Positions 1,386-36,607 of a stretch of 37,935 nt of DNA are shown piece after piece; the first letter of the stretch is position 1; every line of letters begins with the position of its first letter. This DNA is from a virus (lineage: Duplodnaviria > Heunggongvirae > Uroviricota > Caudoviricetes): positions 1-37,935 of the IMG/VR virus record IMGVR_UViG_2778261393_000005; one strand, written 5' to 3'. The position numbers and the translations under genes are program-made. The notes beneath the pieces are model-generated. The model did no database searches and was not told the origin of the DNA. It worked only from the letters and a program-made list of their open reading frames with translations.

Positions 1386-2042
1386 TCACCCATCTTGCTG
1401 CGGTGCTACTATTGAAAAGTGCTCACACCCTTTAGCCCAAATAGTTTTGATAGTTGTCCAACTGACTGGAACCTTGATTTCGATTCTCCCGCTACAGTCA
1501 CAAGTTTCGCAATCATCATCACCAAAGCATTCCGGGCAGCTTATAAACGTAGTTTCTGAAAATTCACCGGATAGCACACCCTTAGCGCCGTTCTCGGCTG
1601 TTAGTCTCTTCGGCACCATGACCCAACCATCCGGAGTTACCGGAGAGTTGCCCGACAGCTCGTTCAACTTGTAAGTTTGGCTTACAGGTTCGGCTTCCAG
1701 TTCTGCTATGCGCTTTTTTGCTGCTTCCAGCTCAACACGCAGCTTCCCTACCGTTAACGCAATATCCTCGTTCTCCTGGTCGCGGCGTTTGATGTATTGC
1801 TGGTTCCTTTCCCGTTCATCCAGTAGTGCCAGCACGGTAGCCGGATTAGCCTTGGCAACAAAATCCCGGACTGGCTTACAATCAATCTCCGCAATGGGTT
1901 GATACGATGTGTAGCCATGCTGTCTTGTATAACTACCGTGACGAATAACGAAAAAATCACCATTTATTTTTTTAGCCTGCCACTTATCTTCACCGGCTTT
2001 CTCTGCCGCTTCACGCAGTGCCTGATAGTCAATCTTGTTCAT
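1386..2042 (-). CDS. Ead/Ea22-like early-region protein, 218 aa
   Basis: ORF MNKIDYQALREAAEKAGEDKW... with central coiled-coil LEAAKKRIAELEAE and a Cys-rich C-terminus (CPECFGDDDCETCDC); family assignment from memory only. Confidence 0.5.
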   Translation of the reverse strand: MNKIDYQALREAAEKAGEDKWQAKKINGDFFVIRHGSYTRQHGYTSYQPIAEIDCKPVRDFVAKANPATVLALLDERERNQQYIKRRDQENEDIALTVGKLRVELEAAKKRIAELEAEPVSQTYKLNELSGNSPVTPDGWVMVPKRLTAENGAKGVLSGEFSETTFISCPECFGDDDCETCDCSGRIEIKVPVSWTTIKTIWAKGCEHFSIVAPQQDG

Positions 2043-2043
2043 G

Positions 2044-2343
2044 TCACATCACCCTGAATCCGTTGCATTTACGTAAGAAATCGCAGATATAGCCCTTCAT
2101 TTTTTCATGCCAATCTCGATCATTCCCATTGCACCAACCATCAGGTGGAGTCCAGTTTTCTATCAGATCAGCAATTTTCTTTGCTTTCGCCGGAGTAGCT
2201 GTTGCGGTATCGCAGTAATGACGAGTGTCAACCAACGTATCCATACCATCGATATCAAGTACGCAAAACCATGTGTGATTCGGCATTTCAACAGATGGTA
2301 TTTGTTGCCCACGTCGACGTTTATCAATAAGACATACACTCAC
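2044..2343 (-). CDS. Hypothetical protein, 99 aa (GTG start)
   Basis: GTG at 2343-2341 preceded by AAGGAGG SD with 6-nt spacer; GTGA overlap with upstream stop; stop 1 nt before the downstream ATG. Confidence 0.45.
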
Positions 2344-2525: not shown

Positions 2526-2811
2526 TACTGATAGCGCCATAGCGTGAGCGGTAATTACGCAGGCGCGGGTCAATTTCAGGGAAGTGGGTATATGTGGCTT
2601 TGCGGAATGGTCGGATTGATGTCTGGTAAATTCGATCGCGTTCTTCTTTCTCTGCAAGCCATATACAGTGGCGAAATTCCTTTTCCTCTTTCGTTTCCTG
2701 CGGTAGCGACATTATCCGATCGTAGTTTTTTCTGAATTTATCCAGCACCTCCGATACGGAATTGCCGGAACAGCGGCGCGGGTCATCCGCACCATACAAA
2801 GGCGCTGGCAT
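2518..2811 (-). CDS. Hypothetical protein, 97 aa
   Basis: ATG 2811-2809 with AAGGA SD; sits immediately downstream of ssb in the same operon. Confidence 0.5.
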
Positions 2812-2834
2812 AATTAAATCCTTATTTTTCTAAA

Positions 2835-3218
2835 TCAGAATGGGATGGAATCGTCGTATACAGGAGTGTTCTGCTGGTTACTACTTTGCTGCTGCGGGCC
2901 ATTTCCTGAAGCTGCAAATCCAATCTTTGCATTCAGTAATTCAAGAGTGATTGATTGACCATTTTTCCCCTGATAAATATCAACCCTGATGTTTTCTCCG
3001 GTAATTTCAACAATGCCACCTTCAACAAGAACACTACGGTAGTAATCCGCTTGCGCTCCCGGCTTGGCAAATACAACGGCGCTGTAGTTTGTCCATTCTT
3101 TCTTTTTTGTCTGGCGTTCGTAATACTGAACGCCAGCACGGATGTTGAATCCGATATTTTCCCCGGTCTGAAACTCTCTTGCGGGCTTGTTTAGTCTTAC
3201 AGTAATCGAATGTGCCAT
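2835..3218 (-). CDS. ssb: Single-stranded DNA-binding protein (phage SSB)
   Basis: MAHSITVRLNKPAREFQ... ending in acidic tail ...PVYDDSIPF (SSB C-terminal motif); ATG 3218-3216 overlaps erf stop (TAATG); the ORF-track N-terminal extension is discounted. Confidence 0.75.
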   Translation of the reverse strand: MAHSITVRLNKPAREFQTGENIGFNIRAGVQYYERQTKKKEWTNYSAVVFAKPGAQADYYRSVLVEGGIVEITGENIRVDIYQGKNGQSITLELLNAKIGFAASGNGPQQQSSNQQNTPVYDDSIPF

Positions 3219-3823
3219 TAAGCAGCAGCTCCTTCTAATTCGTCTCGTCTGATGTTGTAAACGTCCTGCGCTTTGTGCTGCTCCGGTGTGCCTTCGAGCA
3301 TCTTCCACGCTTTGGCGAACGCCTGTTTAAGCTCTTCTACGGTGTTTTTCTGCATTGCTGCGTCAGTGAATGCTTTTAGAACCTGTTCAGGTGTAGGTGA
3401 TGGTTTTGATTGCTTTGCTGCTGCGTTCTGCTGATGTTTATGCTCGTCGGTATCTGCATCTTTCGCATCATCAATGCCGAATAAACCATTGAGGCAATAC
3501 TTGCGTGCATAAGAGCTTGTAGCTCCCGTAACTTGTGCAGAATCCATTCCTTTCTTGCTTTCTTCCTCTCGTGCAAGAGCGGTTGCCGTATGACTGTTTT
3601 CGCCATCGGTAATAGTTGCCGTGGCTTTCACGTAATACCGATCACCAATCAACACAACTTCATCGCTGATTGATAAAAACAGGCCATTCAGTAGCGGCTT
3701 AACGCCTTCAAGAATGTCTTCGCAGCTTCTGTATTTATATTTACCGAATGAGTTGTACTGATTCTTTGGCGCGTTCAGATTCTCCTGAATAGCTGCCAGT
3801 CTTGCGTAAAATTCTTTGCTCAT
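3218..3823 (-). CDS. erf: Erf single-strand annealing recombinase (P22 Erf-like)
   Basis: MSKEFYARLAAIQENLNAPKNQYNSFGKYKYRSCEDILEGVKPLL... matches recalled P22 Erf N-terminus; ATG 3823-3821; the ORF track begins at an upstream TTG. Confidence 0.85.
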   Translation of the reverse strand: MSKEFYARLAAIQENLNAPKNQYNSFGKYKYRSCEDILEGVKPLLNGLFLSISDEVVLIGDRYYVKATATITDGENSHTATALAREEESKKGMDSAQVTGATSSYARKYCLNGLFGIDDAKDADTDEHKHQQNAAAKQSKPSPTPEQVLKAFTDAAMQKNTVEELKQAFAKAWKMLEGTPEQHKAQDVYNIRRDELEGAAA

Positions 3824-12541: not shown

Positions 12542-12710
12542 CCCATCCCAATCCCTTCAATACCAGAAAGAAAGCGTCGAGCGGGCTTTAACGTGCGCTA
12601 ACTGCGGTCAGAAGCTGCATGTGCTGGAAGTTCACGTGTGCGCCGATTGCTGCGCAGAACTGATGAGCGATCCGAATAGCTCAATGTACGAGGAAGAAGA
12701 CGATGAATGA
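12534..12710 (+). CDS. ninF: NinF protein
   Basis: MLSPSQSLQYQKESVERALTCANCGQKLHVLEVHVCADCCAELMSDPNSSMYEEEDDE, recalled as lambda NinF. Confidence 0.7.
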   Translation: MLSPSQSLQYQKESVERALTCANCGQKLHVLEVHVCADCCAELMSDPNSSMYEEEDDE

Positions 12711-13425
12711 GTTAATAAATGGCAATGCCATCAAAATGACAAGCATTGAAATCGCTGAGTTGGTGGGAAGTCGTCCAGATAACGTAAAAATATCAATAGA
12801 GCGCCTGGCTAAATCTGGAGTTATTCAACTTCCTGCATTGCAGGTTTTCGAAAAAATCAATAACTTAGGACTGCGCCGTAGTGTCGAGGCTTACGTCTTC
12901 GAAGGCGAACAAGGTAAGCGCGACAGCATTATTGTCGTTGCCCAGTTGTCGCCGGAATTCACCGCTCGCCTTGTTGACCGTTGGCGAGAGCTTGAAGAAG
13001 CTGCGGTTAATATCCCCAAAACGTTACCGGAAGCGTTGCGCCTTGCTGCTGATCTTGCTGAGCAGAAAATGCAACTGGAAAACCAGCTCGCAATTGCCGC
13101 ACCTAAAGTTGAGTTTGCCGATCGAGTTGGCGAGGCCAGCGGAATTTTGATTGGAAACTTTGCAAAGGTTGTTGGAATTGGTCCAAACAAACTGTTTGCG
13201 TGGATGCGCGATCACAAAATCCTTATTGCTTCAGGTTCCCGGCGCAATGTGCCAATGCAGGAATATATGGATCGCGGCTATTTCACAGTGAAAGAAACAG
13301 CGATCAACACAAATCACGGGATACAGATATCGTTCACCACAAAAATCACCGGGCGTGGTCAACAGTGGCTGACCAGAAAGCTGCTCGATAACGGAATGCT
13401 GAAAGTAACAGGGGAGGCTGCTTAA
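12703..13425 (+). CDS. Antirepressor-like protein (Rha/Ant N-terminal region plus KilA-C/ANT domain)
   Basis: 240 aa; N-terminus MTSIEIAELVGSRPDNV..., C-terminal ...FADRVGEASGILIGNFAKVVGIGPNKLFAWMRDHKIL... (KilAC-type); domain call from memory. Confidence 0.5.
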   Translation: MNELINGNAIKMTSIEIAELVGSRPDNVKISIERLAKSGVIQLPALQVFEKINNLGLRRSVEAYVFEGEQGKRDSIIVVAQLSPEFTARLVDRWRELEEAAVNIPKTLPEALRLAADLAEQKMQLENQLAIAAPKVEFADRVGEASGILIGNFAKVVGIGPNKLFAWMRDHKILIASGSRRNVPMQEYMDRGYFTVKETAINTNHGIQISFTTKITGRGQQWLTRKLLDNGMLKVTGEAA

Positions 13426-16784: not shown

Positions 16785-16959
16785 TAGCGATAATTTTACT
16801 CATCATCCTTCACATCTGGCTCTGTAGACAGGGTGGTGATCACTTCTGGAGTGAATCCAGATTAAATATCTCATTGCTGATGCTTGATATTGAGCATCTT
16901 GCGCGCAGTAAGGGGCTGCGTTGAGATAAGAGCCAGTTCATTACAAATACCAGGATTTA

Positions 16960-16984
16960 GCCTCGCATTCGCGGGGCTTTTTAT
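16960..16984 (+). terminator. Candidate rho-independent terminator downstream of the lysis cassette
   Basis: GCCTCGC-attc-GCGGGGC (one G-U pair) followed by TTTTTATAT. Confidence 0.45.
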
Positions 16985-17126
16985 ATCTGAATTTCACAGC
17001 GCATCTCACGCGCATATTAACGAGAGCCTTTCAGTAAGCGAGCCTGAGAAATGCCGTTATAGGTGGCGACCTCTCTCGGGCGGCTTTTCTGTGAGACAGG
17101 CTCACTTTCTAAAAGGTAAAGACGCT

Positions 17127-17744
17127 ATGAATCATCAATTGGCTAATCTCGATTTCCGGGACATGGTGGTTGTTTCTGGTGATCGCGTGATCACAACCTC
17201 CCGCAAGGTAGCAGCTTACTTCGACAAGCAGCATCACCACATCATTCAGAAAATCGAAAAGCTAGACTGTTCGGATGAATTTCTAACCAGCAACTTTTCG
17301 CGGGTTACCTATGAACACAAGGGTAATCAGTATGTTGAATATGAAATTTCCAAAGACGGCGCGATGTACATCATCATGTCGTTTACCGGCAAAAAAGCTG
17401 CCGCCATCAAAGAGGCGTTTATCAAAGCATTTAATTGGATGCGTGACAGGCTGATGGAGATGGCTCACTCATACCAAAGAGAGCACAACGAGTTAATGCT
17501 GGAGTTCATGAAGGAAAAGGATGTTGCCAGTATGTCAGGACGCTTGCTGAACCGCTGGGGCAGGATCAAAAAACCGCAACTCATAGCAAGAATCGAAAGG
17601 CTTGAGCAGCAGGCGCAAATATCGATCCCCGGACTGCCAAAGCGACCATTCCAAAGCCCATCTACGGGTGGGCTTGATAATGAAACCGGAATTTATTCTG
17701 GGCAACCAGTTACGGCAGTACCGCGAAACAACCCAAGCCAGTAA
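17127..17744 (+). CDS. Rha-family phage regulatory protein
   Basis: MNHQLANLDFRDMVVVSGDRVITTSRKVAAYFDKQHHHIIQKIEKLDC...YIIMSFTGKKAAAIKEAFIKAFNWM; pattern typical of Rha as recalled; ORF-track upstream extension discounted. Confidence 0.6.
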   Translation: MNHQLANLDFRDMVVVSGDRVITTSRKVAAYFDKQHHHIIQKIEKLDCSDEFLTSNFSRVTYEHKGNQYVEYEISKDGAMYIIMSFTGKKAAAIKEAFIKAFNWMRDRLMEMAHSYQREHNELMLEFMKEKDVASMSGRLLNRWGRIKKPQLIARIERLEQQAQISIPGLPKRPFQSPSTGGLDNETGIYSGQPVTAVPRNNPSQ

Positions 17745-28833: not shown

Positions 28834-30135
28834 TTGGCTACATGGAAACAGGCTGGTAATTCAGGCGCGCTTCTTGCCGGGTTAGGCGGCATGAACTCCA
28901 ACGCTCCAAGAGCAAGTGATGCAGACGCCACGCTTGCATACATTCGACAGAATAACGAGATGGAGCGTTCAGGACGTAATAACGTTGGCTTGCAGGCTTT
29001 GCAGGGCATTTCATCTGTCATGGATATGTATAAGCAGATGGATCAGCAGAAGCGACAGCAAGAGTTTCAGCAGGCTTATGCTGATGCATATACATCTGGT
29101 GACCGCGATGCAATGCGAAAACTGGCATCACAGTATCCTGAGCAGTTTGACGCTGTAAGAAACGGCATGAAATTTGTCGATGAAGACCAGCGTTCCACTG
29201 TCGGTACACTGGCAGCAAGTGCCAGACTCGCAGCTTCATCTCCAGAAGCCATGATGTCATGGTTGCAGAACAACTCATCTGAGCTTACTCGTGCCGGAGT
29301 AGACCCTCTGGATGTGGCGAAAATGTACCAGCAAAATCCACAAGGTTTCACAGAGTTTGTTGATCACCTTGGGATGGCTGCGCTTGGTCCGATTGATTAC
29401 TTCAATGTTCAGGACAAGATGGCTGGTCGTGAAATTGACCGAGGCAGACTGGCAGAGACAATCCGCAGCAATCAGGCTGGAGAAGCACTAACAGCTCGAG
29501 GTCAGGACATCCAGATACGTGGACAGAACATCAGCGCACAGAATGCTGCTCTTTCCCGAGAAATACAAAGAGCAGAATTACAAGAAAAGGCTCTGGACAG
29601 ACAGATAGCAAGAGAAAGCAATCAGTTAAAGCTTGAAGAGCTAAAACAGAAACAGGCAGATGTTCGGCAAAAGGCTGACATAGCCCGCGCTGACAGGCAG
29701 GCCGCCGCTCAGGGTGCAGTTGATACGTTCAGCACCGCGCTTGATTCTCTCAACGAGATAGAGCAAAGCCCCGGCCTTCCAAAAGCAGTAGGAATTCGCT
29801 CAGCGTTTCCGACAGTTCCTGGCTCTGATGCGGCTAACTTTGAAGCAAGGCTCGACACCTTTAAAGCTCAAACATTCCTTCCTATGGTGCAGTCCCTGAA
29901 GGGTATGGGCGCTCTTTCAGATGCTGAGGGTAAAAAATTATCCGATGCGGTTGGTGCCCTAAGCCCCAAAATGAGCGAAAAGGCTTTTCGTGACTCTATC
30001 GGAAAGATTCGAAATCAGCTTGAAAGCAAGTTGAGCACTGTTAAAAAACAGTTTGATTATCAGGAGCCAGTGCAGAATATGCCAGCGCAACAACCTACTA
30101 CTGGCAGTAATTTTTCTTCACTATGGGGTGATTAA
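28834..30135 (+). CDS. Ejection protein, P22 gp20-like
   Basis: 433 aa; apparent TTG start at 28834 with GGAGG SD 6 nt upstream; synteny. Confidence 0.6.
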   Translation: MATWKQAGNSGALLAGLGGMNSNAPRASDADATLAYIRQNNEMERSGRNNVGLQALQGISSVMDMYKQMDQQKRQQEFQQAYADAYTSGDRDAMRKLASQYPEQFDAVRNGMKFVDEDQRSTVGTLAASARLAASSPEAMMSWLQNNSSELTRAGVDPLDVAKMYQQNPQGFTEFVDHLGMAALGPIDYFNVQDKMAGREIDRGRLAETIRSNQAGEALTARGQDIQIRGQNISAQNAALSREIQRAELQEKALDRQIARESNQLKLEELKQKQADVRQKADIARADRQAAAQGAVDTFSTALDSLNEIEQSPGLPKAVGIRSAFPTVPGSDAANFEARLDTFKAQTFLPMVQSLKGMGALSDAEGKKLSDAVGALSPKMSEKAFRDSIGKIRNQLESKLSTVKKQFDYQEPVQNMPAQQPTTGSNFSSLWGD

Positions 30136-32132
30136 TGGCTAAAGCATGGAAAGATGTTATCGCCTCTCCACAGTATCAGGCGTTAGCACCAGAACAAAAA
30201 GCGCAGGCTCAGGAGCAATACTTCAATGAAGTCGTTGCCCCGCAAGCTGGAGAAAATGCAGAGCAGGCCAAGCAAGCTTTCTATGCTGCCTATCCATTGC
30301 CATCTGTGCAGCCAGTGGAGACACAGCAACCAGTAGCACAGCAACAACCACAGCAAAGTGGGTTTATGTCTGATCTTGGCGAAGCAGTAAAAGAGACTGG
30401 TCGCGGACTGGTGCAGGCTGGCGTGAACGTAGCAAACATACCTGCATCAGTTGCCGATGCTGTAACAAGTGCGGCGGCATGGGCCGGCGGTAAACTCGGT
30501 ATTGGCGATGGAACATACCAACCAGCGCCACGAGTAACAACGCAGGGATTAGAGCAGGATTTTGGCCTTCAGCAAGGCGCGCTGACTCCACAAACGACAG
30601 AGGGAAGGGTATTTGCTGAAGCATTGCCTTACCTTACCCCTGCTGGCATTGAGAGAGCGGCAACACAGGCACCAACACTCGCTGGTAGAATCGCTCAGGG
30701 TGCAACTCGCCTTCTCGCTGAAAACGCAGTCGGGTCACTTGCTGCAAATAGTGCGAAAGATGATGCGGAAGCACTCGCTACCGATTTAGGCGTTGGCGTT
30801 CTGGCTGGCGGCGCTATTAACGCTGCCGGACGTGGATTAGGTGCTGCTTATCGTGGTGTTCGTGGTTCGATAGCACCAGAAGCGCAACAGGCTATCAGAT
30901 TTGCAGAGCGTGAAGGAGTTCCTCTGCACACCACAGACCTGTTACAACCCACTTCCCGCGTCGGAAAAATGGCGCAGACTACAGCAGAAAATATCCCTCT
31001 GGCTGGCACAAGCGGAATGAGAGCAACGCAACAAGAAGCGAGAAGCCAGTTGGTGCAGAGATTTGCCGATAAATTCGGTGAGTATGATCCAGCGGTTGTT
31101 ATTGACAGCCTTAAAGCGAAAACATCAGGAATTCGTCGTGCCGCCGGTAATCGACTGGAGCAGGTTCAGAATGCTATGGCTGGAGTAAACATTCAGCCTG
31201 CGCGAGCAATTCAGCAGATTGATACAGAAATATCTAACCTGCAGAAGCTTGGTAAGGTTGCTGATAACGAGACTATTTCAAAACTTCAGTCCTATCGTGA
31301 TGAGCTTGTTCGCAATGCTGGCCCTGATGGTCCGGTAAATCTGGATTTGAAGCAATTAAGCGATCTGCGCAGCCAGTTCAGAATGGACGTGAAGGGTGAG
31401 CGACCAGTGTTACCAAACCGTTCCGATGCTGCCATTCAGCGCGTTTACAAGGCAATGACTGACGATATCAATGGTGCCATTGGTCAGAATCTTGGCAACG
31501 ATACTCTCCGTAAATATCAGCAGGCCAATGCCGTCTACGCTGACGAAGCGGCAAAACTAAAGAATACCAGGCTGAAGAATGTTCTCATGAAAGGCGACCT
31601 GACGCCGGAAGTTGTCAACAACATGCTATTCAGCAAGAACAAATCGGAAATTAAGACTCTGTATAACTCAGTTGGTCGTGTTGGCAGGGCGCAAATGCGC
31701 AATGGCATCATTGGAAAGGCGATGGAGAAATCAGGTGGTTCACCTGACCAGTTCCTTCGACAGCTTAACATCCTGCAAAACCAGACTGGCATCACATTTA
31801 AAGGTCAGGATGCTGCTTATCTGAAAGGATTGAAAAACTACCTGCAATCTACGCAACAGGCTGCAAAAGCAGCAGTAACAACACCAACAGGGCAGCAAAC
31901 CATCCCGTTCATTATCGGGTATGGGACGGCAATGAACCCGGCGACAACTGGCGCAGCAGTAAGCTACGGACTTCTTACTCGCGCCTATGAGAGCGAGCCA
32001 TTCAGAAATGCAATGCTCCGAATGGCAAACACCCCACGCGGATCAACATCTTTTGAGAAAGCCATGCAGCAGGCACAAAAGGCTATTAACGCTATGGCGC
32101 AGGGGGCTAAGTCTGATGTGTTGTCAGAATAG
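30135..32132 (+). CDS. Ejection protein, P22 gp16-like
   Basis: 665 aa; last gene of the ejection-protein trio by synteny. Confidence 0.65.
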   Translation: MAKAWKDVIASPQYQALAPEQKAQAQEQYFNEVVAPQAGENAEQAKQAFYAAYPLPSVQPVETQQPVAQQQPQQSGFMSDLGEAVKETGRGLVQAGVNVANIPASVADAVTSAAAWAGGKLGIGDGTYQPAPRVTTQGLEQDFGLQQGALTPQTTEGRVFAEALPYLTPAGIERAATQAPTLAGRIAQGATRLLAENAVGSLAANSAKDDAEALATDLGVGVLAGGAINAAGRGLGAAYRGVRGSIAPEAQQAIRFAEREGVPLHTTDLLQPTSRVGKMAQTTAENIPLAGTSGMRATQQEARSQLVQRFADKFGEYDPAVVIDSLKAKTSGIRRAAGNRLEQVQNAMAGVNIQPARAIQQIDTEISNLQKLGKVADNETISKLQSYRDELVRNAGPDGPVNLDLKQLSDLRSQFRMDVKGERPVLPNRSDAAIQRVYKAMTDDINGAIGQNLGNDTLRKYQQANAVYADEAAKLKNTRLKNVLMKGDLTPEVVNNMLFSKNKSEIKTLYNSVGRVGRAQMRNGIIGKAMEKSGGSPDQFLRQLNILQNQTGITFKGQDAAYLKGLKNYLQSTQQAAKAAVTTPTGQQTIPFIIGYGTAMNPATTGAAVSYGLLTRAYESEPFRNAMLRMANTPRGSTSFEKAMQQAQKAINAMAQGAKSDVLSE

Positions 32133-32201
32133 CTTCGCAAACACCAGGAACGTGCAAAAACCAAATATGTAGAACGCAATATTCAGCATATCTCTTTGCA
32201 T
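32124..32201 (-). CDS. Candidate 25-aa hydrophobic peptide downstream of mnt
   Basis: GGAGGA then ATG (3-nt spacer) MQRDMLNIAFYIFGFCTFLVFAKLF; overlaps gp16 3' end on the opposite strand; speculative. Confidence 0.2.
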   Translation of the reverse strand: MQRDMLNIAFYIFGFCTFLVFAKLF

Positions 32202-32220
32202 AAATCCTCCGTAACTGAGG

Positions 32221-32481
32221 TTAGCTGCTGTCTTTTTTATATAGCTCCTTGAGCGTATCAAAGACAATTTTCTTAACCATATCAGATTGTTGTTCTGCCA
32301 TACGCTCTGCATCGTCAATGTAAACTGATGCAGAGCTTTGTTTAGCCAATGATTCTTCAATCGCTGCAATTATCTCTGAGTTCAGCGACCTGTTATTCAT
32401 CTTCGCGCGCTGTTTAATTTTCGCGTGGAGTTCATGCGGAAGTCTCAAGTGAAACTGCGCCTCGTCGTATTTGCTGTACAT
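32221..32481 (-). CDS. mnt: Mnt-like ribbon-helix-helix repressor (Arc/Mnt family)
   Basis: ...AQFHLRLPHELHAKIKQRAKMNNRSLNSEIIAAIEESL...DAERMAEQQSDMVKKIVFDTLKELYKK matches recalled P22 Mnt (PHFNFRMP...NGRSMNSE...DAERLADEQSELVKKMVFDTLKDLYKK); alternative upstream ATG at 32514. Confidence 0.7.
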   Translation of the reverse strand: MYSKYDEAQFHLRLPHELHAKIKQRAKMNNRSLNSEIIAAIEESLAKQSSASVYIDDAERMAEQQSDMVKKIVFDTLKELYKKDSS

Positions 32482-32602
32482 CCTTGATGCCTCACCAGTT
32501 GGGTGGAATGGCATCGTAACCTACTGGATAAATACTCAATAGTACCATTTCGGTATGCAATCACATCATGGTTGCATCATATCATTCGTCTGGAGCAATG
32601 AA

Positions 32603-34546
32603 ATGTCAGATATCACCGCAAATGTTGTGGTAAGCATGCCTTCGCAACTCTTCACTATGGCTCGTTCTTTTAAAGCCGTAGCCAATGGCAAAATTTATAT
32701 CGGTAAAATTGACACTGACCCTGTAAATCCTGAAAACCAGATTCAGGTTTATGTGGAAAACGAAGACGGCTCTCACGTTTCTGTTGCACAGCCAATCATC
32801 ATTAACGCTGCTGGATATCCGGTATATAACGGGCAGATTGCCAAATTCGTAACTGTGCAAGGCCATTCTATGGCTGTATATGATGCGTATGGCGCGCAGC
32901 AGTTCTATTTCCCTAATGTGCTGAAATATGACCCTGATCAATTTCAGGAAAGATTGCTATCTGAAAATGGGCCATTATTAGTTGATGATTCAGTTGTTCG
33001 TGTAAAACAACCCCTCTCTATGGCAATCGAGAGAGCACAGCACGATAAAAATGCAGATTTTGTGAGCGCGAAAGACTTTGGGTTTAAAGGTGATGGCACG
33101 AATGATGATGCTGCGGTGCTCAAACTTAAAGATTACGTTAACACAAGACCTAAATATTCTCCACCAGTATCCGTGTACTTTCCAGATGGAAATTATCTTA
33201 TTAGCGAGTCATTGAATTTAATTAGACCTGTTACTTTATACTCTTTTAAAGGAGCAACAATAAACTATACTGGAACTGACGCTGCAGTTAAGTGTGGAGA
33301 TCCAACTGACGAAGATCAACCAACAGCAGATAATTTTTATCAAGGTGATTATGTAATTTATGGAATTAGATTCACTGGTGGTCAAAATGCAAAGTTTGGA
33401 ATAATGGTAAAGAGCTTTGTTTTTACACCAAAAATACAATATTGTGATTTTATTGATTATGGCAATAAGGATTCTTATGATATATATGCTCAGTTTGAAA
33501 ACTGGGATATCCTTATAGAAGGATGCTATAAAAAAACATTTTTTAGTGATATTGCAATAGGTAGTTTCATTTCTTTACCTGGTAAAAAAACGGATGGCAG
33601 TGCATATGATGGTGGGAACTCTAGAGTTACAATAAGAGATTGCTCCATGACAGCATATAACAATCAAGATTTAGGATATTTTGCCTATATTAACTGCGTT
33701 AAGGGGCGAGTAATTGGAGGTAGTGCGCATCACTCTACAGGTGGAATACTACTTGGACCAGCGGCATCTGGAACGCTTATTGATGGATTTTATTGTGAAG
33801 TAAGTACTCAACACAGACCTTGGGTAATATCTGTTTTAAGTGATAAAACTAATCCTGATAATTATTTGTTCCCTCAGTCTGTTACGGTAAGAAATGTGTA
33901 TGTAAATATGCATAAAGAAAAAATTGGTAATGCTGGTAAGCTTATTGGTGTCATGGATGCTGATGTGAAGTTAAGAGACTGGAGTGTAACAGACTGCCAG
34001 ATTTCAAACTTCGAAAATGGTCAAGTTCTTATTGATAGAAATGATCTTAATGAGCAGATCGGTAACACTTATGCAAGAATAAAACCAATTTTTGTTCCTT
34101 ATAATTCTGGTGGTGGAAGTAAATTTATTGTTACTGGAAAACTAACAACAGCAGAAGACTGGTCGTGTGGTGATATAGAAACTGGAGTTTGGATTCCGAC
34201 TGTAGGCGGAAATGCCTCCTACTATAAACAAGTTGGAAGTTATACAAGAACTGGTGATGTAGTGACCGCAAGTTTTCACATAGGGATAACGATTATTGGA
34301 AGTGGAGATGGTTATAGGATAGGTGGATTACCTTTTTTGTCACGACCAGGGGCTACTTCTGTTGGATCTATTGGGTATTACAATAACTTAACTACGGCTG
34401 TGGCTGCGCTATTGCCTAGGGTTGATGCTGAAAGTAATTACATAACATTTACAGGAGCTACATCTGTCGCTGGTAATATGAATGTACAACTAAATGTTCT
34501 AGGTAATAATGCTGAGATAATTGGTTCTGTTACTTATTTTATATAA
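32603..34546 (+). CDS. Tailspike protein: P22-type N-terminal head-binding domain plus divergent beta-helix receptor-binding domain
   Basis: [59 protein letters not shown]...[10 protein letters not shown] matches recalled P22 gp9 N-terminus; GGAG SD 8 nt upstream; C-terminal two-thirds visibly AT-rich; ORF-track start 32555 discounted. Confidence 0.9.
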
Positions 34547-34606: not shown

Positions 34607-36607
34607 CTAATTAATTACAAAGCCGTTATCATTAAGTATTTCTTTAACACCAGATTTAGATAAGTGAAAACCAACATTATATAATCCGCCGTTATGGTCA
34701 ATTATTCTACAACCATTGTCATCACATAAAGTTTTTATAGGTTTTATCTTATGCAATCCTTTCATGTCAGGAATATATTTATCTAATATATCGGATTGTT
34801 GTTTTGCTAAGTTAAGCCCATTTCTGCTGCTTGTGTATGTTGTCTCAAACTTATAATTGATAGATCTTAGTTTTGAGAATACTATGTTGGCAACATCTTC
34901 AGACGGATTAGGGGTTGGGTATACAATATATACATCATGCCCCTTGGACACGAGTTTCTTAACATTATTCGATAGAGAGATATATGCCTGCTCGCCACCT
35001 AAAAAATCTCCGCCACTAAAATTTTGCTTCGCCATCTCTAAAGGAGATGACACAGGAGCCTTAGCAAGCGGGAATTGATCATAATTAGCAGCTATAAAAA
35101 TAGTTTTCTTACCCTTAAGAGAATCAATGGCTTTCCATCTTTGCTCATTGACAACCACACATTCAGGAACATTGCCAAACCACATATCACTCACAAATGG
35201 ACATTGCTCATACGTGAGAGATAACATCCCTTTGTTATTTTCTTTTGAGTAATCTAAAATTGTTGGTGCATATTGTCCAGCATAGCTATCTCCTAATACG
35301 ATGATGTCATCACCGCCAAAGCTACACGGGTTATCAAGAGAACGTAAACCACATAAATAACTATCAGGTTCACCTCTTAAACTTTTACCAATATTTGAAT
35401 AATCTGCCAATTTCCTGAACTCTGGTTCTTTGTACATTTCATAGGTTTCTTTCAGAATGCCTGCAAGACGCCACTGAAAACCCCCATCGGCCTTTGCATA
35501 AATAGAGAAAGCAAGCAATGCTGACAGAGATGTTGCTAATACTATTGTATTCTTACTTTTAACATGTTTTGCTCTATATGGTTTTTCAATAAAAAAATAT
35601 GAAAAAGACGAAATAACAATTGAAATTGATGCTAATACTACACAGTAATAAGGAGTGATATTTTCACTAAATAATATCCTGTAAAAAACAAAAACAGGTT
35701 GATGCCATAAATATAGAGAATATGATATCAAGCCAATAAAGACAATCGGACGCAAGGATAATATTTTAGATATTAAATCGGCACCATTTGCAAATGCGAT
35801 TATCAAACATGAACCAGCTACAGGTATTAGGGTGATAAATGAAGGGTGTTTGATGTTATTTCCAAAAAACAACATTGAATAAACAATCATCAACATTCCA
35901 ATTACTGGCAGAAACGAAGTTAAAGATGATTGGTCTTTATGTATATTGCTTCTTCTTTCTTTTACAAAAAAAGACACAATTCCACCAAGAATTAATTCCC
36001 ATGCCCTTGGTAGTAGCGTATAGAATGCTAAGTCAGGGTAACTGCTAACTATAATATTTGCATACACAATAGATGAAACAGAAATCAATATAAGAAGTAA
36101 TACTCTGTATTTCTTAATAAATTTATTTATAAAAATCAATAAGAATGGATAAAATACGTAGAATTGCCATTCAACAGCAAGACTCCATGTATGAAGGAGT
36201 GGTTTAAATATACTTGCATTTGATACATAGCTATCTTCACCAAGAAAATAATAATTAGAACCAAAATAAATAGCAGAAATGAGAGATTCAGAGAATTTTA
36301 CTAAGTCATTTGGTAGAAGAATTTTATAAGCCACTATCGATGTAACTACAAGCATAGCAATAAGAGCAGGAACAATTCTCTTTATGCGTCTCCAATAGAA
36401 GTCAGTTAGTGAGAAAGAGCGGCTATCAAGTTTATTTATAATGATATCTGTAATTAAATATCCTGAAAGAACCAGGAAGACATCAACTCCAAAGAATCCG
36501 CCTTTGAATATCTTTACTCCAAACAAAGAAATGCCAGAGTGATAAATGATGACAGCCATCACTGCCAAACAACGCAATCCATCAAGCTCTTTCCTATACT
36601 TAAGCAT
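34607..36607 (-). CDS. oac: O-antigen acetyltransferase, acyltransferase-3 membrane domain fused to SGNH-type domain (Oac/OafA-like)
   Basis: 666 aa; multiple TM helices; N-terminal acyltransferase-3 pattern (RKELDGLRCLAVMAVIIYH...FFGVDVFLVLSGYLIT); C-terminal soluble region with GDSY (VLGDSYAGQY); very AT-rich. Confidence 0.75.
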   Translation of the reverse strand: MLKYRKELDGLRCLAVMAVIIYHSGISLFGVKIFKGGFFGVDVFLVLSGYLITDIIINKLDSRSFSLTDFYWRRIKRIVPALIAMLVVTSIVAYKILLPNDLVKFSESLISAIYFGSNYYFLGEDSYVSNASIFKPLLHTWSLAVEWQFYVFYPFLLIFINKFIKKYRVLLLILISVSSIVYANIIVSSYPDLAFYTLLPRAWELILGGIVSFFVKERRSNIHKDQSSLTSFLPVIGMLMIVYSMLFFGNNIKHPSFITLIPVAGSCLIIAFANGADLISKILSLRPIVFIGLISYSLYLWHQPVFVFYRILFSENITPYYCVVLASISIVISSFSYFFIEKPYRAKHVKSKNTIVLATSLSALLAFSIYAKADGGFQWRLAGILKETYEMYKEPEFRKLADYSNIGKSLRGEPDSYLCGLRSLDNPCSFGGDDIIVLGDSYAGQYAPTILDYSKENNKGMLSLTYEQCPFVSDMWFGNVPECVVVNEQRWKAIDSLKGKKTIFIAANYDQFPLAKAPVSSPLEMAKQNFSGGDFLGGEQAYISLSNNVKKLVSKGHDVYIVYPTPNPSEDVANIVFSKLRSINYKFETTYTSSRNGLNLAKQQSDILDKYIPDMKGLHKIKPIKTLCDDNGCRIIDHNGGLYNVGFHLSKSGVKEILNDNGFVIN

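Follow-up and report, generated by a model that had tools for sequence, protein, structure and literature searches.

In the immI region of phage P22, the ant gene is placed under the control of the repressors Mnt and Arc. This region was described by Villafane et al. (2008) as a variable "ant moron", of which the versions in ST64T, ST104 and Para1 contain only mnt and one unknown gene (PMC2629481), and the phage L genome paper posed the question whether such an mnt-like gene has a new function or is a remnant (PMC8022706). An exclusion determinant has also been defined experimentally in this part of a P22-like genome. Owen et al. (2020) reported that the P22-like prophage BTP1 expresses a leftward RNA of 786 nucleotides (nt), STnc6030, which is antisense to the tailspike gene's 5' end and the 3' end of gene 16, and which, when cloned alone, abolishes infection by BTP1 and not by P22, while prophage induction is unaffected (PMC7067206). 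In P22, exclusion is exerted by SieA, an inner-membrane protein that blocks DNA injection, and the substitutions P546S and G532W in the product of gene 16 (gp16) permit escape from it (Leavitt et al. 2024, PMC10883804). Here we describe the corresponding locus in the virus record IMGVR_UViG_2778261393_000005 (Caudoviricetes; positions 1 to 37,935, the whole stretch of 37,935 nt being referred to as the window), in which a leftward mnt gene and a small open reading frame (sORF) for a peptide of 25 amino acids (aa) are embedded in the late operon in antisense orientation, in the interval that separates gene 16 from the tailspike gene. We propose, at a probability of roughly 0.55, that the two form an mnt-peptide operon that would be expressed in lysogens and serve superinfection exclusion.

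The genes of the locus and the signals read from the sequence are as follows.
30135-32132, plus strand: gene for a gp16-type DNA ejection protein of 665 aa, Sf6/L/BTP1 type (PHROG 770 DNA transfer protein, 4.7e-238)
31911-31949, plus strand: codons for gp16 residues 593-605 (IIGYGTAMNPATT), aligned with the STnc6030-escape window of BTP1 and with the SieA-escape residue P546 of P22
32124-32201, minus strand: sORF, encoding the 25-aa predicted single-pass membrane peptide MQRDMLNIAFYIFGFCTFLVFAKLF
32205-32210, minus strand: Shine-Dalgarno (SD) sequence GGAGGA of the sORF, read from the sequence
32221-32481, minus strand: mnt, encoding an 86-aa ribbon-helix-helix repressor with a C-terminal tetramerisation helix and the beta-strand A-Q-F-H-L-R-L
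32221-32514, minus strand: longest form of the mnt reading frame, 97 aa
32490-32493, minus strand: SD sequence GAGG of mnt, 8 nt upstream of the 86-aa start, read from the sequence
32482-32602: intergenic region of 121 base pairs (bp) between mnt and the tailspike gene
32603-34546, plus strand: tailspike gene, with SD sequence GGAG at 32592-32595 (Pfam Head_binding, 9.8e-67, and a pectate-lyase-like domain)

In gene order, the window resembles ST64T, ST104 and L, in which gene 16 is followed by a small leftward ORF, a leftward mnt and a rightward tailspike gene, without arc or ant and with the operator at the edge of the module; moreover, phage L encodes a homolog of the small peptide. An mnt gene divergent from the tailspike gene without arc and ant is also present in Gally and JEP4. 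The mnt-only arrangement beside the tailspike gene is not new, as it is on record for ST64T, ST104 and L (PMC2629481, PMC8022706), and these published accounts give no operator, selection analysis or small ORF. Unlike P22 immI, the window lacks arc, ant, sar, sieA and orf59a: tblastn searches with P22 Arc, Ant, SieA and orf59a gave zero matches across the whole window, and no equivalent of Ant, Arc or sar lies between mnt and the tailspike gene. Regulators of the Roi/Ant-like (PHROG 63, 12703-13425, plus strand) and Rha-like (16884-17744, plus strand) types are encoded elsewhere, and the Mnt operator is near neither. The stretch shares 97.8% identity with phage IME10, and the part that begins at the mnt stop is 99% identical to Sf101. 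Matches to it occur in 469 of 5426 complete E. coli genomes, and in 141 of these they span at least 80% of it. An earlier note on this DNA had described an orphan Mnt-like ribbon-helix-helix repressor, divergent by about 120 bp from the tailspike gene, without arc, ant or sieA, and with the control elements of mnt in the intergenic region. The domain and structure matches, the 121-bp distance, the empty tblastn searches, and the homolog of the P22 mnt promoter (P_mnt) with a symmetric candidate operator at the position of P22 O_mnt all bear out this description, in which the word "orphan" is misleading, since mnt is the first gene of the proposed two-gene leftward operon.

Judged by sequence comparison, the sORF is a real conserved coding gene, belonging to a family of 23-25 aa peptides that is not annotated in the records examined. 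Loci were recovered by a DNA pattern taken from the middle of the sORF, which yielded 126 viral loci in a sample biased towards conserved copies; ATG and stop codon were kept, without insertions or deletions, in about 124 of these (30 peptide variants). In the whole collection 214 of 306 loci carry the sORF, and E. coli prophages with it may run to hundreds. The family, which also includes IME10 and Sf6 members, is defined by the motif M-x-R-D-x-L-N-x-x-F-x-I-F-G followed by a hydrophobic tail, to which the window peptide conforms. Homologs of 23 aa are encoded by L, ST64T and ST104 (MNRDLLNFAFLIFGIVVGRLLFA), by BTP1 and g341c (MERDLLNF(V/A)FLIFGLVVGKLLFA), by HF4s (MERNLLNFAFLIFGICVGVALFT) and by Klebsiella phage phiKp_30 (MERDLLNAAFLIFGIVVGMMLFA), in each of which GAGG or GGAGG is found 3-4 nt away from the ATG. 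The different upstream contexts that meet the sORF at or near its ATG number at least six, and most have an SD sequence. It follows mnt (ACGGAGGATTT-ATG), a gene for a lipoprotein of 161 or 171 aa (CAAAGGTATCGCCT-ATG) or a further sequence (GGTGGAGGGTTGGCT-ATG), or is directly divergent from the tailspike gene, as in Sf6 (GAGTTGAGTCT-ATG); the motif GAGG(A/G)TTT-ATG is common to the window-type, L, BTP1 and phiKp_30 contexts. Throughout the family the sORF is convergent with, and overlaps the end of, the gene 16 of the Sf6/L/BTP1 type, and in the window the overlap comprises the final 9 nt of the sORF. Its start lies 19 nt past the mnt stop with no terminator detected in between, and the terminator scan gave nothing relevant to mnt or the sORF.

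Conservation acts on the peptide. Conserved residues are specified by different codons in different phages (Arg by AGA, CGT or CGA; Leu by CTG, TTG or CTA; Gly by GGT, GGC or GGA). Within the window type, the ratio of nonsynonymous to synonymous polymorphism (pN/pS) was 0.26-0.32, lower than in the two other frames of the sORF strand. In comparisons between types it was 0.13-0.23, the synonymous sites being almost saturated; these estimates rest on very few codons. With a grand average of hydropathy of 1.2-1.6, the profile fits a single membrane helix, and the product is predicted to reside in the membrane; its translation is suggested by the SD sequences. The gene has been overlooked in annotation: none of 38 phage records that encode the sORF, Sf6 and L included, annotates it, and an exact look-up of five variants in a collection of 15 billion proteins found none. 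Thus, the very hydrophobic ORF with a GGAGGA SD sequence that the earlier note had placed directly downstream of mnt is indeed there; of the two suggestions made for it, a small membrane peptide or a remnant, the latter does not hold. For the sORF of Sf6, no convincing promoter candidate was identified. In many relatives, predicted lipoprotein genes (lipobox signal peptides, no Pfam family) lie between the sORF and mnt, for example at 2724-3239 (minus strand) and 3344-3763 (plus strand) of locus L004 and at 1624-2109 (minus strand) of locus L010. In Gally, no genes of the region are expressed more highly than these, and the stop codon of the Gally-type lipoprotein gene is in frame with the sORF, 7 codons upstream.

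A function for the peptide is suggested by the BTP1 locus. The window gp16-type protein is 74% identical to BTP1 gp16 and 34% identical to P22 gp16. When BTP1 was mapped from the published supplement coordinates and its own record, the homologous small ORF (MERDLLNFVFLIFGLVVGKLLFA), of 23 aa and with 9 of the first 14 residues matching the window peptide, was found at D23580 positions 404250-404321 (1501-1572 of locus L300; 2012-2083 of locus L301), inside STnc6030 (403942-404727). It has the SD sequence TGGAGGG. The STnc6030 study considered only ORFs of more than 60 aa (PMC7067206), which is why this ORF went unnoticed. Four escape single-nucleotide polymorphisms (SNPs) were reported at D23580 404041-404078, all of them non-synonymous in the gp16 homolog, and Northern blots showed bands of about 480-500 nt (PMC7067206). 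The stop codon of the BTP1 sORF lies 478 nt from the mapped start of the transcript, a distance that matches these bands and is much too short to include the escape window. The latter corresponds to BTP1 gp16 residues 583-595 (ILGIGTVTNPALV), which, in an alignment of the window, BTP1 and P22 proteins, pair with P22 residues 540-552. This segment contains P546, and G532 precedes the segment by 8 residues. Two further features were observed around the BTP1 ORF: a perfect TATAAT about 20 nt upstream, and a 7-bp hairpin (TTCGCTC-CCT-GAGCGAA) about 12 nt past its stop, near the expected end of the RNAs of about 500 nt.

The BTP1 transcript resembles the one proposed for the window in being a leftward lysogen RNA that crosses the gap between gene 16 and the tailspike gene, runs antisense into the 3' end of gene 16 and holds the homologous ORF with its SD sequence; it differs in that BTP1 has no mnt and the transcript starts 310 nt inside the tailspike gene. 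P22 sieA, in turn, occupies the same place as the sORF, convergent immediately after gene 16, and likewise has a hydrophobic membrane product, as predicted for the sORF. SieA and the BTP1 locus are also alike in that the infecting phage is excluded while the induced prophage is not, and escape maps to the same gp16 segment (G532 and P546 versus 583-595). SieA and the sORF co-occur in none of the 306 loci collected. They are without sequence homology, as there is no SieA match in the window, and SieA is a multi-pass protein of 164 aa with its own promoter, as opposed to a single helix of 23-25 aa. Because the BTP1 homolog lies inside STnc6030 and the escape residues align with the SieA-escape residue P546, the peptide is likely to be a superinfection-exclusion factor that acts on incoming gp16 at DNA injection, like P22 SieA. 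We consider it a tentative reading, held at somewhat below even odds, that the 23-25-aa peptide is the real effector of the exclusion credited to STnc6030 and jams incoming gp16 at the glycine-rich segment targeted by SieA, with the window Mnt as the autoregulated switch that drives the peptide. A peptide effector would explain both the unaffected induction and the escape by single missense changes in gp16.

The published mechanism, by contrast, is RNA pairing, in which STnc6030 pairs with the incoming gene 16 and tailspike mRNA; the same could hold for the sORF region of the window, with the ORF being incidental. STnc6030 is abundant and confers exclusion when cloned, and the escape SNPs lie opposite its annotated 3' end (PMC7067206). 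As the scan of the window revealed no terminator past the sORF, the mnt transcript probably runs antisense into gene 16. However, cis-antisense complementarity is independent of sequence, and leaves unexplained the conservation of the peptide, the saturated synonymous change, and the SD sequences and ATG that are conserved in many contexts. Furthermore, over-expression of STnc6030 leaves induction unaffected, all four escape SNPs change gp16 residues, these residues coincide with SieA-escape sites, and the main RNA species would be too short to reach the escape window if begun at the mapped start. We judge an RNA-based action unlikely, while giving it real weight; in the literature searched, no later paper reinterpreting STnc6030 was found.

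In length, single hydrophobic helix and short polar N-terminus, the sORF peptide resembles Ibs, ShoB, TisB, KdpF, AcrZ and MgtS. The sORF might accordingly encode a type I toxin, similar in size and hydrophobicity to the Ibs, ShoB and TisB-type toxins, that is held in check by the overlapping late-operon RNA for prophage maintenance or abortive infection, and it is fully overlapped by the opposite-strand late transcript. Its context differs from that of the enterobacterial type I toxins and small membrane regulators, being a prophage late-operon moron. Moreover, a strong SD sequence in an operon that should be active in lysogens, where late transcription is shut down, has the wrong polarity for a toxin-antitoxin pair, cloned STnc6030 is tolerated in Salmonella, and no significant RNA structure hides the sORF start. 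A toxin function is therefore very improbable.

The other gene of the proposed operon encodes a protein with the fold of P22 Mnt (49% identity), including the tetramerisation helix. Its N-terminal ribbon-helix-helix domain matched Pfam Arc (PF03869, 7.5e-15) and PDB 1mnt (3.4e-19, residues 6-79 aligned), and its C-terminal helix matched Pfam Repressor_Mnt (PF11423, 3.4e-14) and PDB 1qey (1.7e-8). Translation likely starts at the ATG at 32481, giving 86 aa, because GAGG lies 8 nt upstream of it; the alternative ATG at 32514 has no SD sequence and falls within the predicted -10 element of P_mnt. The 86-aa form is also called by PGAP in strains M6 and ETEC4068. Selection was assessed on 157 copies of the window mnt type from viral contigs and genomes, of which 153 are intact, three are truncated at residue 31 and one is extended. 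Among 54 distinct 86-codon alleles, the variable sites number 12, 11 and 33 at the first, second and third codon positions, and pN/pS is 0.15 overall, 0.03 in residues 1-45 (the DNA-binding domain) and 0.23 in the linker and tail.

These values indicate that mnt is a conserved functional repressor under strong purifying selection, and not a decaying gene. The contrary reading, in which mnt was left behind by an arc-ant deletion and drifts without function under relaxed selection, had been named by the earlier note as what would overturn its view, and was left open by the phage L authors (PMC8022706). It can draw on the absence of arc and ant from the window and on the rare disrupted copies, namely the truncated and extended ones above and a nonsense codon in Citrobacter. 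Decay is refuted by the low pN/pS together with the 153 intact copies out of 157; in addition, conservation of the operator and of P_mnt extends over several genera, more than 1000 contigs encode the exact Mnt protein, and the same mnt stands alongside a complete arc-ant cassette in about 25 loci. A remnant is hardly credible on these grounds. In an mnt of the JEP4 type from Citrobacter sp. (3501-3752 of locus L215), codon 5 is a nonsense codon and an operator half-site of the locus is altered too (GTACT), a rare instance of apparent decay.

In the intergenic region, the following elements were recognised.
32541-32557: candidate Mnt operator AGTACCATTTCGGTATG, with the core GTACC-N5-GGTAT at 32542-32556, at the same position as the annotated P22 O_mnt
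32534-32539, minus strand: predicted -35 element of P_mnt, TTGAGT, aligned with P22 TTGAGA
32513-32518, minus strand: predicted -10 element of P_mnt, TACGAT, aligned with the annotated P22 element TATCAT
32508-32536, plus strand: speculative candidate rightward promoter ATGGCA-17-AATACT, matching 8 of 12 consensus positions and below the scanner threshold, whose start would fall in the operator
32555-32577, plus strand: tailspike-leader hairpin of 9 bp, AUGCAAUCA-CAUCA-UGGUUGCAU, which overlaps the operator's right edge and is followed by the tailspike ATG after about 26 nt

The operator search by alignment of homologous phages that the earlier note had advised for 32482-32602 gave a conserved symmetric site. 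Intergenic regions were aligned to the P22 record, in which O_mnt, P_mnt, P_ant and O_arc are annotated. CTCAAT followed by a symmetric 17-bp site is found in P22 (AGGTCCACGGTGGACCT), L (AAGACCACCGTGGTCTT), Gally (AAGACCACAGTGGTCTC), JEP4 (CGTACCGTTTCGGTATG) and the window, and in each case the palindrome co-varies with the recognition strand of the adjacent Mnt over four classes. The strand H-F-N-F-R of P22 pairs with GGTCCAC-N-GTGGACC, Q-F-N-L-R of phage L with AGACCAC-N-GTGGTCT, Q-F-N-F-R with ATATCAC-C-GTGATAT, and Q-F-H-L-R of the window with GTACC-N5-GGTAY; by this comparison, the window Mnt is of a distinct specificity class. Phage L differs from the window further in the C-terminal tail of its Mnt and in an extra rightward lipoprotein gene, orf62. 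In about 110 distinct control regions compared, GTACC-R-TTT-N-GGTA-Y stands next to every Q-F-H-L-R Mnt; the site is kept in Escherichia sp. E1V33, Buttiauxella, Serratia and Citrobacter copies, and perfectly palindromic variants occur (CATACCATTTCGGTATG, ATACCATTTTGGTAT and GTACCATTTTGGTAC). Homology between modules stops right after GGTATG, where at least four different sequences join to different tailspike leaders. The window holds this site as its sole copy, and from homology and position, symmetry and co-variation we infer that 32541-32557 is the Mnt binding site.

As in P22, the candidate operator lies directly upstream of the P_mnt -35 element, ATTGAG is retained and the distance from operator to mnt start is similar; the centre of the operator precedes the predicted P_mnt start by about 43 bp, and the operator precedes the tailspike ATG by about 45 bp. 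The ATTG that immediately follows the operator and the TTGnnn and TAnGAT elements are retained in all Mnt classes compared, so that, by homology, P_mnt appears to have been kept. Its spacer is 15 nt in the window lineage and 17 nt in most relatives. In contrast, the strong P_ant of P22 (TTGACA-17-TATATT), which overlaps O_mnt, has no conserved counterpart in the window or its relatives: the homologous hexamers are degenerate, the best candidate matches 8 of 12 positions, and the -7 T of the homologous -10 element is found in P22 only. Furthermore, in the window the tailspike gene directly follows the operator. Two other candidates were set aside. The one minus-strand match that the promoter scan gave near the tailspike start (CTGACA-17-AATGAT, 32609-32581) is no more than chance would produce and lacks conservation, and the inverted repeat at 32555-32577, which is specific to the window lineage, was rejected as an Mnt operator because alignment with P22, L, Gally and JEP4 puts the homologous operator at 32541-32557. 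An inverted repeat GATGCC-N18-GGCATC at 32486-32515 was also observed, which brackets the mnt SD sequence and leader and overlaps the predicted -10 element of P_mnt; its outer arms have been kept in L, Gally, JEP4 and Buttiauxella, and its inner stems differ yet pair (CACC/GGTG in the window, CACTT/AAGTG in L, GTCC/GGAC in Buttiauxella).

Although rejected as an operator, the repeat at 32555-32577 may act as RNA. In tailspike-sense RNA, 97% of the cells compared pair, natural variants giving G-U, U-A and C-G pairs, and pairing of the variants is kept in this sense only; Escherichia sp. E1V33 has a compensatory change from G-C to U-A. At the corresponding place, hairpins without homology to it are found in P22, L and Gally (CCGTAGC..GCTGCGG, in two copies in P22) and in Sf6 (CCGGACA..TGTCCGG), and none of these tailspike-leader hairpins is followed by a U-run. 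Possible roles of the structure are leader stabilisation, processing or attenuation. Single-sequence folds of the tailspike leader and the sORF mRNA were no better than shuffled sequences (z -0.9 and -1.4), and an Rfam search gave nothing above noise.

The mnt gene is tightly linked to the tailspike gene. In all 78 window-type viral loci with enough flank, the tailspike N-terminus is encoded divergently from mnt, and the same holds for nearly all loci found with the JEP4 variant; the species-level genome scan yielded only nine loci, useful for diversity and too few for statistics. About 25 JEP4-type loci carry a second cassette between gene 16 and the Q-F-H-L-R mnt, in which an Arc-domain repressor is divergent from an Arc homolog that is followed by a Bro-N/P22_AR_C antirepressor and further genes. 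In the JEP4-like contigs L220 and L226 (3270-5567), the tailspike-proximal Q-F-H-L-R mnt is convergent with the end of the antirepressor operon. Since this mnt stays beside the tailspike gene even when a complete cassette is present, it is not simply a leftover of arc-ant loss, and the comparison favours a separate module fixed at the tailspike junction with a local role.

P22 prophage Mnt acts in trans on the incoming phage. The window Mnt could likewise confer immunity in trans, repressing the antirepressor promoter of superinfecting phages that share its operator and sparing the lysogen from induction, and Mnt proteins of the L and Gally classes do adjoin ant in some phages. Nevertheless, a GTACC-N5-GGTAY operator with an adjacent ant was found in none of about 150 viral loci, nor in any of 9 genomes or 4 phage records, and in two-repressor phages ant sits behind the different, Arc-domain repressor, which leaves trans-immunity quite improbable.

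Closer to the local role is the possibility, raised in the earlier note, that Mnt controls the tailspike gene or a read-in transcript. In the tailspike version, Mnt would repress a P_ant-derived promoter driving the tailspike gene, which would be expressed early on infection, before any Mnt has been made, and silenced in lysogens. The candidate operator does lie between the control region and the tailspike gene, and Q-F-H-L-R Mnt is tailspike-adjacent even where a separate immI cassette exists. The start from the candidate ATGGCA-17-AATACT would fall in the operator, and the hairpin that pairs only in the tailspike sense follows right after. Relatives also have tailspike transcription that is independent of the late operon. 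BTP1 has tailspike starts of its own, and in the LF82 prophage Gally, whose tailspike-adjacent mnt is of the L/Gally class, RNA-seq in macrophages showed mnt up 40-fold and the tailspike gene up 21-fold with gene 16 unchanged (PMC9928086). Because mnt and tailspike RNA rise while gene 16 does not, late-operon-independent transcription occurs on both strands in this prophage. On the other hand, the -35 and -10 elements of P22 P_ant, like its -7 T, are conserved in no tailspike-adjacent mnt module, and the promoter scanner found no plus-strand promoter in the region between mnt and the tailspike gene. The joint rise of mnt and tailspike RNA in Gally is unlike the prediction of simple repression (PMC9928086), and read-through from the upstream plus-strand gene GALLYPH_14 could account for the Gally tailspike signal. 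Repression of the tailspike gene by Mnt is accordingly doubtful, though it deserves a hearing.

The mnt-peptide operon proposed here would work as follows. Mnt, by homology and selection a functional tetrameric ribbon-helix-helix repressor of the Q-F-H-L-R class, would bind GTACC-N5-GGTAT at 32541-32557 and there autoregulate P_mnt; at the same time it would occupy the entry to the tailspike leader, where it might occlude rightward initiation or read-in. In lysogens, one leftward RNA from P_mnt would carry both mnt and the second gene, which, according to the comparative evidence, encodes a conserved, predicted single-pass membrane peptide at the 3' end of gene 16. The peptide would insert into the inner membrane and interfere with the gp16 of incoming phages whose ejection protein is of the same type, and mnt would thus be a promoter-and-regulator cassette that keeps the exclusion peptide expressed in lysogens. 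Several points weigh against this proposal. The two genes are separable: Sf101-type prophages have this mnt without the sORF, and in Sf6, BTP1 and L the sORF is present but not directly preceded by mnt, so that expression of the peptide cannot be the sole reason for the retention of mnt. The 15-nt spacer predicts a weak P_mnt. Deletion of mnt from the Gally prophage was viable and without phenotype in the one assay tried (PMC9928086). Finally, the BTP1 escape phages were sequenced only across a 787-bp amplicon, and the 5' ends of the 480-500-nt RNAs are unmapped.

Downstream of the locus, the gene at 34607-36607 (minus strand), convergent with the tailspike gene, encodes a 666-aa AT3-SGNH acyltransferase that is probably an O-antigen acetylase for serotype conversion; other modification genes occupy this spot in relatives, for example one for a shorter O-acetyltransferase in the case of Sf101 and one for a glycosyltransferase in that of ETEC4068. 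With respect to annotation, RefSeq phage records (NC_027398, NC_002371, NC_004348 and others) widely mislabel Mnt, calling it a "partition protein ATPase" or a "chromosome segregation ATPase", and the description of family PHROG 795 carries the same kind of ATPase mislabel.

New in this work are the selection evidence for mnt, its operator and specificity class, its linkage to the tailspike gene, and the unannotated micropeptide family. The four natural pairs of Mnt strand and operator can be used for studying ribbon-helix-helix specificity. A conserved predicted membrane micropeptide was missed in the heavily studied phages Sf6, L, ST64T and BTP1, and a homolog of it lies inside the only experimentally defined exclusion determinant of the region. 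If the peptide is the effector, the published antisense-RNA mechanism needs revision, and the unaffected induction and the gp16 escape by single missense changes, two puzzles of the STnc6030 study, would be explained. The gp16 segment around P22 residues 532-552 would then be a shared target of unrelated exclusion proteins, and the peptide would be the smallest known phage exclusion protein.

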